DNA of 12,569 nt, from positions 1 to 12,569 of the IMG/VR virus record IMGVR_UViG_2778261541_000004; one strand, given 5' to 3'. Below the pieces are notes generated by a model, which worked only from the letters and a program-made list of their open reading frames with translations, was not told where the DNA came from and searched no databases. Positions 2,600 through 4,216 of the stretch are shown one piece after another. The DNA is from a virus (lineage: Duplodnaviria; Heunggongvirae; Uroviricota; Caudoviricetes). Position 1 is the first letter of the stretch. Each line of letters starts with the position of its first letter. The position numbers and the translations under genes were made by a program.

Positions 2600-3001
2600 A
2601 TGAACCTTGAAGCCTTACCAAAATATTACTCCCCAAAATCTCCAAAATTGAGCGATGACGCACCGGCGACAGGCTCAGGTGGTTTAACGATTACGGATGT
2701 GATGGCTGCGCAGGGGATGGTGCAGTCGAAAGCACCGCTTGGGTTTGCCTTATTCCTGGCAAAAGTTGGTGTTCAGGATCCTCAATTTGCGATTGAAGGT
2801 CTGCTCAATTACGCGATGGCACTGGATAACCCGACATTGAACAAATTGAGTGAAGAAACCCGGTTACAGATCATCCCTTACCTTGTGAATTTTGCCTTTG
2901 CTGATTATTCCAGGTCTGCGGCAAGTAAGGCTCGCTGTGAGCATTGTGCTGGTACGGGAATAAATTCAGACGCTGCCAGTAATGGCGGTTTCCTGCTGTG
3001 A
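2600..3001 (+). CDS. Q-like late-gene antiterminator, probably 3'-truncated
   Basis: ATG at 2600 with GGAGAA upstream (the track's longer ORF starts at 2558). It is the last gene before the late region. MNLEALPKYYSPKSPKLSDDAPATG...FAFADYSRSAASKARCEHCAGTG resembles prophage Q proteins as I remember them, but the ORF stops just after the first CxxC, whereas the relatives I recall carry a second CxxC. Confidence 0.55.
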   Translation: MNLEALPKYYSPKSPKLSDDAPATGSGGLTITDVMAAQGMVQSKAPLGFALFLAKVGVQDPQFAIEGLLNYAMALDNPTLNKLSEETRLQIIPYLVNFAFADYSRSAASKARCEHCAGTGINSDAASNGGFLL

Positions 3002-3132
3002 AAATGGGCGGCTGGTGGGTGTTGGTAGCACCTGCCAGCCATTCGCTCATGCTTACTGGTCACAAGCGAACCACGGCCCACTGCTTTAGCGCAAAAGCAG
3101 AGTGAGCCTACCAGAGTTACGCTTACTGATCC
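3002..3132 (+). promoter_or_regulatory. intergenic region where a late promoter and Q-utilisation site would be expected; no convincing -35/-10 found
   Basis: Inference from position only (between the Q-like gene and the first late-strand gene). I could not identify strong sigma70 hexamers by eye. Confidence 0.2.
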
Positions 3133-4185
3133 ATGAAAAATACTGTAAAAATAAACAGTGTTGATTTAATCAACGCTGATTGCCTGCATTTTATTCAGTC
3201 CCTGCCTGATGATTCCATTGACCTGATTGTTACCGATCCGCCGTACTTCAAGGTGAAACCCAACGGCTGGGACAATCAGTGGAAAGGGGACGAAGATTAC
3301 CTTAAGTGGCTGGACCACTGTCTGGCCCAGTTCTGGCGGGTGTTAAAACCTGCCGGAAGCCTTTACCTGTTCTGTGGGCATCGCCTGGCATCTGATATTG
3401 AGATCATGATGCGTGAACGTTTCAACGTGCTTAACCATATCATCTGGGCGAAGCCGTCCGGACGTTGGAATGGGTGTAATAAAGAAAGTCTGCGTGCATA
3501 TTTTCCAGCCACAGAGCGCGTTCTGTTTGCTGAACATTACCAGGGGCCATATCGCGGCAAAAGTGACGGCTATGCGGCAAAAGAAAGGGAACTCAAACAG
3601 CACATAATGGCACCGCTGATTTCGTATTTCAGGGATGCTCGTGCCGAACTGGGTATAACGGCAAAACAAATTGCCGAAGCCACAGGTAAGAAAAATATGG
3701 TTTCCCACTGGTTTGGTGCCAGTCAGTGGCAGTTGCCGAATGAGGCTGACTATCGGAAGTTACAGGCACTGTTTTCCCGTATAGCGGCAGAGAAGTTTCA
3801 GGAACAACAACTGGAACAACCACACCACCAGCTGGTGGCATCTTATGATTCACTGAATCGCAAATATTCTGAATTGCTGGATGAGTTTAAATCTCTCCGG
3901 CGCTATTTCTCCGTATCAGTCTCCGTGCCTTATACCGATGTCTGGATGCATAAACCCGTTCAGTTCTACCCGGGTAAACATCCGTGTGAGAAACCTGCGG
4001 ATATGCTCCGGCAAATAATCAATGCCAGTAGTCGACCTGGTGATCTGGTTGCTGATTTTTTTATGGGATCCGGTTCCGCAATAAAAGCAGCAATGGCGCT
4101 GGGGCGTCGGGCCTTAGGTGTTGAGCTTGAGTCAGAGCGGTTTAACCAGACAGTGAAAGAGATAAACGAGCTGGTGGGGAAATAA
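3133..4185 (+). CDS. DNA methyltransferase, beta-class, probably N6-adenine
   Basis: 350 aa. DPPY (motif IV) sits near the N-terminus in LIVTDPPYF, and an FxGxG AdoMet motif (DFFMGSGS) sits near the C-terminus; this order defines beta-class amino-methyltransferases. An HTH-like segment (ITAKQIAEATGKKNMVSHWF) lies in the middle. No adjacent restriction endonuclease gene. Confidence 0.9.
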   Translation: MKNTVKINSVDLINADCLHFIQSLPDDSIDLIVTDPPYFKVKPNGWDNQWKGDEDYLKWLDHCLAQFWRVLKPAGSLYLFCGHRLASDIEIMMRERFNVLNHIIWAKPSGRWNGCNKESLRAYFPATERVLFAEHYQGPYRGKSDGYAAKERELKQHIMAPLISYFRDARAELGITAKQIAEATGKKNMVSHWFGASQWQLPNEADYRKLQALFSRIAAEKFQEQQLEQPHHQLVASYDSLNRKYSELLDEFKSLRRYFSVSVSVPYTDVWMHKPVQFYPGKHPCEKPADMLRQIINASSRPGDLVADFFMGSGSAIKAAMALGRRALGVELESERFNQTVKEINELVGK

Positions 4186-4188
4186 TCT

Positions 4189-4216
4189 GGTGGCCACGTA
4201 GGTGGCCTTTTTATTT
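4189..4216 (+). terminator. rho-independent terminator after the methyltransferase gene
   Basis: Seen in sequence: GGCCAC-GTAG-GTGGCC hairpin followed by TTTTTATTT, starting 4 nt after the methyltransferase stop. Confidence 0.55.

Follow-up and report, generated by a model that had tools for sequence, protein, structure and literature searches.

How are the late genes of this lambdoid prophage switched on, if the gene for its Q-like antiterminator appears to stop short and a DNA methyltransferase gene stands between it and the lysis genes? The window, by which we mean the whole 12,569-nt stretch of DNA that was analyzed, contains a co-oriented series of lambdoid prophage genes, as seen from the ORF listing and Pfam searches. 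An Ash-family gene in the early part is accompanied by a replication-initiator-like helix-turn-helix (HTH) gene (703–1521) and a DUF968/HNH gene with its 3′ end at 2586. Then come, on the + strand, the Q-like ORF, which starts with ATG and encodes 133 amino acids (2600–3001), a complete N6/N4 DNA methyltransferase gene of 350 codons (3133–4185), and a phage 21-type lysis cassette. The cassette is complete and all of its ORFs are open, comprising an S21-family holin (4252–4467; PF04971, E = 2e-35), a lysozyme (4467–4964; PF00959, E = 9.6e-46) and the Rz/Rz1 spanin (Rz, 4961–5428; PF03245, E = 8e-50), with the Rz1 frame at 5181–5366 identified from the gene call in sister contigs. After Rz lies a gene for a DUF1441 protein, in the position of the small terminase subunit, and then the terminase large subunit gene, cut at 441 amino acids (6760–8085). 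The terminase is followed by a C-terminal fragment of a tail fibre and by genes for NleG, EspW, a second NleG and an IpaB/EvcA-family protein.

The Q-like ORF matched the Pfam family "Antitermination protein Q" (PF03589) over residues 24–107 (E = 1.2e-21). Its exact 133-residue product is present on contig NLNJ01000096.1 of draft assembly GCA_002229695.1, which is the window itself, where it is labeled "antitermination protein [Escherichia coli]". The predicted protein ends in CEHCAGTGINSDAASNGGFLL before the stop codon. The initial annotation had described a stop nine codons after a single CxxC; there is indeed one such pair (C113/C116), but 17 codons follow the second cysteine and 13 follow the GTG sequence of the motif. 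When the truncated Q served as query in a protein search, most of the entries found were partial or fragments and gave no clean length distribution for the family, and DNA alignment was used instead.

Pairwise BLAST against the intact prophage of E. coli JX2 (locus L001) showed that the window lacks 827 bp. The alignment fell into two pieces, window 2301–2959 with L001 2902–3560 and window 2948–4300 with L001 4376–5729, at offsets of 601 and 1428, respectively, and with identities of 98.8% and 99.3% on the two sides of the deletion. The pieces overlap at window positions 2948–2959, where the sequences, placed side by side, reveal a 12-nt imperfect repeat: the intact relative has GCTGGTACTGGA upstream and GCGGGTACGGGA downstream, and the window reads GCTGGTACGGGA. 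This places the crossover inside an exact 5-bp microhomology, GGTAC, at 2951–2955. In JX2, the missing segment comprises Q codons 121–250, a spacer of 253 bp and most (about 58 codons) of a 67-amino-acid ORF. Most likely, illegitimate recombination between the short imperfect repeats, with GGTAC as their core, removed the 827 bp and fused Q codon 120 out of frame to the final codons of the small ORF about 0.8 kb downstream. Comparisons of the window with other intact prophages of E. coli, and with Ayreon, mEp460 and SfV, which are viable phages, reveal the same single deletion. By megablast, window positions 2400–4300 were covered to at least 80% in 316 of 5,426 complete E. coli genomes; among the matches listed, all were in two pieces and spanned about 2729 bp, compared with 1901 bp in the window.

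The ORF is thus a composite. Positions 2600–2959 are native 5′ Q sequence, codons 1–120 of a 250-residue, lambda-type (YdfT-like) antiterminator, ending in the first CxxCxGxG motif (C113-E-H-C116-A-G-T-G120) and identical in amino acid sequence to the intact Q of JX2 (L001 3201–3953). Positions 2960–3001 encode the foreign tail INSDAASNGGFLL plus the stop codon, 13 out-of-frame codons that represent the +1 frame of the final codons of the 67-amino-acid ORF and the spacer after them. In the relative's own frame, the matching segment (window 2951–2982, L001 4379–4410) reads GYGNKFRRCQ and then stops. In the alignment to full-length Q proteins that the initial annotation had proposed, the window ORF departs from the 250-residue family form directly after residue 120. 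We also considered a frameshift instead of a deletion; this was ruled out by three-frame translation of 2940–3135, in which no frame contains a continuation of Q.

What the truncated protein has lost can be read from its full-length relatives. The intact JX2 Q, annotated as ydfT, has 250 residues and four CxxCxGxG motifs, at C113/C116, C147/C150, C160/C163 and C186/C189. Its homology to lambda Q spans the entire protein (35% identity, E = 2e-41), and it also matches the lambda Q chains in PDB entries 7UBM/7UBN, 4MO1 and 7UBJ-L, with residues 1–120 corresponding to lambda Q 1–125 and residues 160–250 to lambda Q 117–207. Compared with lambda Q, which has two of the motifs, the intact relatives carry a 48-residue insertion that brings two extra ones. 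In lambda Q, the body is formed by residues 61–113 and 153–207, with helices 4 and 5 making up the HTH, while residues 114–152 form a zinc-ribbon arm, and both body and arm contact the Q-binding element (PMC9388147). Residues 1–120 of the window protein align with lambda Q 1–125 only (PDB 7UBM), and the ORF therefore retains the N-terminal lambda Q-homologous region, consisting of the torus-forming segment and the first half of the body. The deleted residues 121–250 correspond to lambda Q 117–207, a range that includes helices 4 and 5, and three of the four CxxCxGxG motifs lie among them. The body's C-terminal half with the HTH is consequently missing, and the zinc ribbon is incomplete, with C113/C116 as the only CxxC pair left. 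The initial annotation was right that Q is truncated and its zinc site incomplete, and the full-length relatives add three further CxxC pairs, more than the one it had expected.

The Q-like ORF is a truncated lambda-type antiterminator and a deletion pseudogene. It belongs to the same allele family as the 250-residue YdfT-type Q proteins of the K-12 Qin prophage and of phages SfV, mEp460 and Ayreon; unlike these, the window copy is decayed. Judged by its relatives, the product would be left with half a zinc site and half a four-helix bundle, with the DNA-reading helix gone, and on these grounds we can safely infer that it would be without function, loading onto RNA polymerase being impossible. 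Positions 2600–3001 should accordingly carry a Q pseudogene label, and the prophage should be annotated as defective for late transcription.

The deletion removed more than protein-coding sequence. The deleted spacer aligned in register with the PR′ region of lambda (NC_001416). The PR′ of the intact relative reads TTGCGT, 17 nt, TAAGAT, 6 nt and AACGATGGG, compared with TTGACT, 17 nt, TAAATT, 6 nt and AACGATGGG in lambda. In lambda, Q loads at a sigma-dependent pause that is caused by the −10-like element AACGAT, and the Q-binding element sits between the promoter hexamers. About 35 nt past AACGATGGG, a GC-rich hairpin with seven U residues after it is present in the relative, and RNA folding of the 86-nt stretch containing this terminator gave −27.7 kcal/mol (z = −3.8). 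In the relatives, tR′ comes about 60 nt after the −10 hexamer, unlike in lambda, where it follows the transcription start at a distance of about 194 nt. Simple promoter and terminator scanning missed both the PR′ of the intact relative, whose −35 hexamer matches at three of six positions, and its tR′; these elements were established by the lambda alignment, by folding and by conservation. The promoter–pause–terminator stretch is conserved nearly base for base in JX2, E. coli AR_0081 and phages Ayreon and SfV. Directly past the terminator, similarity among the four ends, a pattern typical of the variable cargo slot that heads lambdoid late operons.

The intact relatives thus resemble the lambda late switch (PDB 4MO1, 7UBJ-7UBN) in having a full-length Q homolog and a PR′-like promoter, and in that the late promoter and pause element precede an intrinsic terminator. 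The window differs from lambda in keeping only Q residues 1–120: the cognate late promoter, the AACGATGGG pause element and tR′, present 3′ of Q in the relatives, were all inside the deleted segment. This explains why, as the initial annotation had noticed, there are no promoter hexamers in 3002–3132; a consensus scan of the window from 2400 to 4500 detected no sigma-70-like promoter, and there were no Rfam matches in the Q-to-holin region. What remains 5′ of the methyltransferase gene is a conserved untranslated leader (2983–3132, + strand), delimited by alignment to the JX2 prophage, with positions 3002–3132 identical to the matching part of L001 4411–4560. The leader holds a long hairpin at about 3004–3050 (fold −56.9 kcal/mol, z = −2.9). 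The suggestion that late genes are uncoupled from Q in this remnant is supported by these results, since one deletion took PR′, the site of Q loading and pausing, and tR′ together with the 3′ half of Q. Even a Q protein supplied by another prophage would have nothing to act on here, as PR′, the Q-binding element, the pause site and tR′ are all gone.

We then considered the methyltransferase. The PF01555 domain (E = 1.1e-40) spans the protein over its full length, and the motifs follow the beta-class order, with an N-terminal DPPY motif (VTDPPYF, residues 33–39), a central recognition domain and a C-terminal FxGxG motif (FFMGSGS, residues 309–315). Compared with the M.EcoGII reference sequence (PMC11551740, Table S1), 280 of 349 residues are identical over the full length (80%; 90% positives), and the alignment is gap-free in the recognition domain, at residues of about 160–237. 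The enzyme encoded by phage Ayreon differs at a single position (349/350 identical). The gene is thus predicted to encode an intact beta-class N6-adenine methyltransferase of the M.EcoGII family. M.EcoGII itself is a sequence-non-specific adenine methyltransferase borne on a prophage; it is not expressed by lysogens, and its constitutive expression harms the cell (PMC5778455). It has been described as toxic (PMC12707154), and non-specific adenine methylation was also reported for reconstructed ancestors of the M.EcoGII clade (PMC11551740). The putative enzyme of the window resembles M.EcoGII in size, motif order and location on a prophage. It differs in having lost the Q-dependent promoter that would normally turn on its expression.

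The gene is followed by a terminator of its own, as had been proposed. The terminator scan identified an intrinsic terminator-like element on the + strand in the gap between the methyltransferase and holin genes (4192–4216), with the stem GGCCACGTAGGTGGCC at 4192–4207 and then the T run TTTTTATTT. The same element is present in the JX2 prophage, and a terminator is annotated at that position in phages Ayreon and SfV.

The annotated gene order in these two phages is Q, terminator, small ORF(s), methyltransferase, terminator and holin, and the order in the E. coli prophages of JX2 and AR_0081 is Q, small ORF, methyltransferase and holin. Phage mEp460 matches the whole module, and phage cdtI matches the part from methyltransferase to holin. 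M.EcoGII homologs with 93% identity occur in Stx2 phages, and phage 1720a-02 has an M.EcoGII-like gene placed after a Q gene that differs in size, with stx2A following immediately. Q, PR′/tR′, small ORF, methyltransferase, terminator and holin is the native layout, shared by published phages and by E. coli genomes numbering in the hundreds. The initial annotation had assumed that the methyltransferase gene occupied the place of PR′, qut and tR′; in the relatives, these elements stand right after Q, just as they do in lambda, and the methyltransferase lies between tR′ and holin. Comparison with JX2, AR_0081, Ayreon and SfV showed the gene to be native at this position rather than inserted. Nor did it become the first late gene through the defect, as was suggested; in the intact phages, it already comes first among the sizeable late genes. 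In more general terms, M.EcoGII-type genes are the first sizeable gene of the late operon, just past tR′ and ahead of the holin gene or stx. Judged by its position, the methyltransferase regularly belongs to the early part of the Q-dependent late transcript of many lambdoid phages, and such a position would offer a simple explanation for the reported silence of the methyltransferase in lysogens.

To see how widely the junction allele is distributed, we examined both complete and draft genomes. A 101-bp junction sequence was spanned by none of the 5,426 complete E. coli genomes, and the exact 35-nt junction had no match in a search of one genome per species. The allele was found solely by looking up the exact protein in draft assemblies: according to the cluster record of the protein collection, the 133-residue product is present on five contigs. 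In the contig look-up, six carrying contigs were read, representing five places, namely four NCBI draft assemblies and one Logan read-set assembly. A 581-bp region around the junction was 100% identical across all five contigs.

It could be argued that the Q family naturally includes this short 133-residue form and that the late promoter was displaced by a methyltransferase gene arriving as a mobile insertion, and the databases do hold many short "antitermination protein" entries. However, many of the named short entries are marked as partial, and the final 13 residues of the window protein come from another ORF, read out of frame, and from spacer sequence. Moreover, viable phages have the 250-residue form followed by the same methyltransferase, with PR′/tR′ located upstream of the methyltransferase gene and not replaced by it. 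We consider this explanation very improbable. We give still less credence, indeed next to none, to an assembly artefact, in which a collapsed or chimeric draft contig would mimic a deletion. The window does come from a draft assembly, as a contig of 12.6 kb, but three more NCBI assemblies have the same junction, as does one independent Logan assembly of a public read set, with 100% identity over the 581 bp. Because the junction region is identical in five contigs, the junction is a real inherited allele of a small lineage.

We conclude that this is very probably a decaying E. coli lambdoid prophage in which one 827-bp deletion destroyed both Q and the DNA target of Q, leaving native methyltransferase and lysis genes that are most likely silent. 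The late switch would have been broken twice, through loss of the Q protein's C-terminal half and through loss of its target. The methyltransferase, its terminator and the lysis genes would then persist, intact and in native order but lacking a promoter of their own, as silent passengers. Such silence, which we consider most likely from the arrangement of the locus, would spare the host both lysis and the action of a harmful methylase, with the effector cargo staying in place. All five contigs have kept open ORFs for the methyltransferase, holin and lysozyme; this fits recent decay and is no proof of lost function.

The open ORFs would also be expected if the locus had been rewired, such that loss of PR′ and tR′ made the methyltransferase, and perhaps the lysis genes too, part of the early rightward operon, allowing transcription independent of Q. 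The trigger would be inactivation of the prophage repressor, for example by the SOS response, and the repressor and cro-like genes are kept in sister contig L006, with the downstream genes co-oriented. The terminator scan predicted no clear intrinsic terminator between the DUF968 gene and the methyltransferase, only weak hits at 2520–2763 that lie inside coding sequence, and the + strand from 2763 to 4192 is without any terminator-like site. Against this, a terminator-like hairpin is found further upstream in the early operon (L006 2535–2552, window about 55–72), and absent an antiterminator, the terminator at 4192–4216 would still block the lysis genes. The 131-nt, highly structured untranslated leader and a weak ribosome-binding context may also limit expression of the methyltransferase, and a constitutive leak would be selected against, given that M.EcoGII-type enzymes are harmful under constitutive expression (PMC5778455) and have been called toxic (PMC12707154). 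On balance, we regard rewiring as unlikely. It is more doubtful still that the remnant, with its effectors kept, has acquired an SOS-driven, Q-independent methylation or suicide module, or that the 133-residue fragment, through its torus segment, might interfere with the Q proteins of co-resident or incoming phages. The component families and the intact arrangement in published phages are already known, and the defect is a routine microhomology deletion; the importance of the finding is small beyond correct annotation.

The loss of Q is one of several internal deletions in this prophage. At about 1653, the start of a yfdN/PerC-like gene is joined to the 5′ part of the DUF968 gene, and compared with E. 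coli AR_0081, about 2.6 kb is gone, comprising genes for a Dam-like methylase, a LexA-like regulator and RusA and a KilA-N gene. A third deletion, at 8048/8049, joins the terminase gene to tail-fibre and effector DNA, and from this point on, the window matches effector loci of the enteropathogenic (EPEC) type at 99.7%. In these respects, the prophage is like the defective, effector-carrying lambdoid prophages of attaching-and-effacing E. coli, which have lost morphogenesis genes but kept the cargo, here two NleG genes, EspW and the IpaB/EvcA-family gene. The multiple internal microhomology deletions are likewise shared with those prophages, and with no notable differences, the window is a typical example of them. 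The lineage illustrates the stepwise loss of lytic functions, including Q with PR′, recombination and regulatory genes and all morphogenesis genes, around a type III effector cargo. Among the sister contigs, L009 has an additional deletion running from ymfL into the DUF968 gene, and L006 retains, upstream, an intact S24 (LexA-like) repressor of 224 amino acids and a divergent cro-like gene.

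The YdfT-type Q gene of the intact relative, the E. coli JX2 prophage (L001, 3201–3953), has no full counterpart in the window, where codons 121–250 have been deleted. The intact protein carries four CxxCxGxG motifs, compared with two in lambda Q, because its zinc-ribbon arm contains a 48-residue insertion. The protein weakly matches models of the DnaJ zinc finger (TIGR02349, E = 2.9e-6, and PF00684, the latter among precomputed hits), which suggests that the arm is a two-zinc, DnaJ-like structure. In the published record of phage 1720a-02 (L011), the name "antitermination protein Q" is attached to a different, 329-residue gene (1550–2539), which lies at the DUF968/HNH position, immediately 5' of Q. 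The label looks like an annotation error, and could misdirect automated calls.

The sequence at 3002–3132 is identical in the window and in the JX2 prophage. RNA folding placed a long, nearly perfect hairpin without a U tract at 3004–3050 on the plus strand, within this conserved untranslated leader and just 5' of the methyltransferase start. The 156-nt stretch that was folded has an energy of −56.9 kcal/mol (z = −2.9); all 200 shuffled sequences folded less well. Searching Rfam gave no match to the leader hairpin, which might serve in RNA processing or in controlling translation of a harmful methyltransferase.

Comparison with E. coli AR_0081, which has the intact arrangement, showed that the window has lost about 2.6 kb in a second internal deletion, at about 1645–1660, with a short microhomology, TCAG, at the site. 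The deletion left about 45 initial codons of a yfdN/PerC-like gene, now fused to the 5' portion of DUF968; the genes lost relative to AR_0081 encode a Dam-like methylase, a LexA-like regulator, RusA and KilA-N. The terminase large-subunit gene is also interrupted, after 441 codons: a junction at 8048/8049 joins it to a C-terminal tail-fibre fragment (8214–8483), and the head and tail genes are therefore all absent. Downstream of this junction lie type III effector genes with 99.7% identity to E. coli O111:H2 loci, comprising NleG (8587–9066), EspW (9196–10254, minus strand), a second NleG (10333–10983, minus strand) and an IpaB/EvcA-family gene (11166–11756), for which annotations differ between a WxxxE-family effector and a bfpT-regulated chaperone.

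Two of the sister contigs, L008 and L009, have decayed further, beyond the Q deletion that they share with the window. L009 has an additional deletion at about 1500–1960, running from ymfL into DUF968, and neither Rz nor the terminase large-subunit gene was called in the lysis region of either contig. Full-length methyltransferase, holin and lysozyme ORFs are kept in every contig that reaches them.

At the left end of the window, Rfam matched a C4 antisense RNA (RF01695) at 102–189 on the plus strand, with a score of 80.1 bits (gathering score, 45) over the full length of the model. C4 is the antisense RNA of P1/P7-type immunity. The match overlaps an Ash-family gene that is truncated by the window start (1–477 according to gene calls in a sister contig), and a terminator-like hairpin lies close upstream of the match, at about 55–72 (2535–2552 in sister contig L006).
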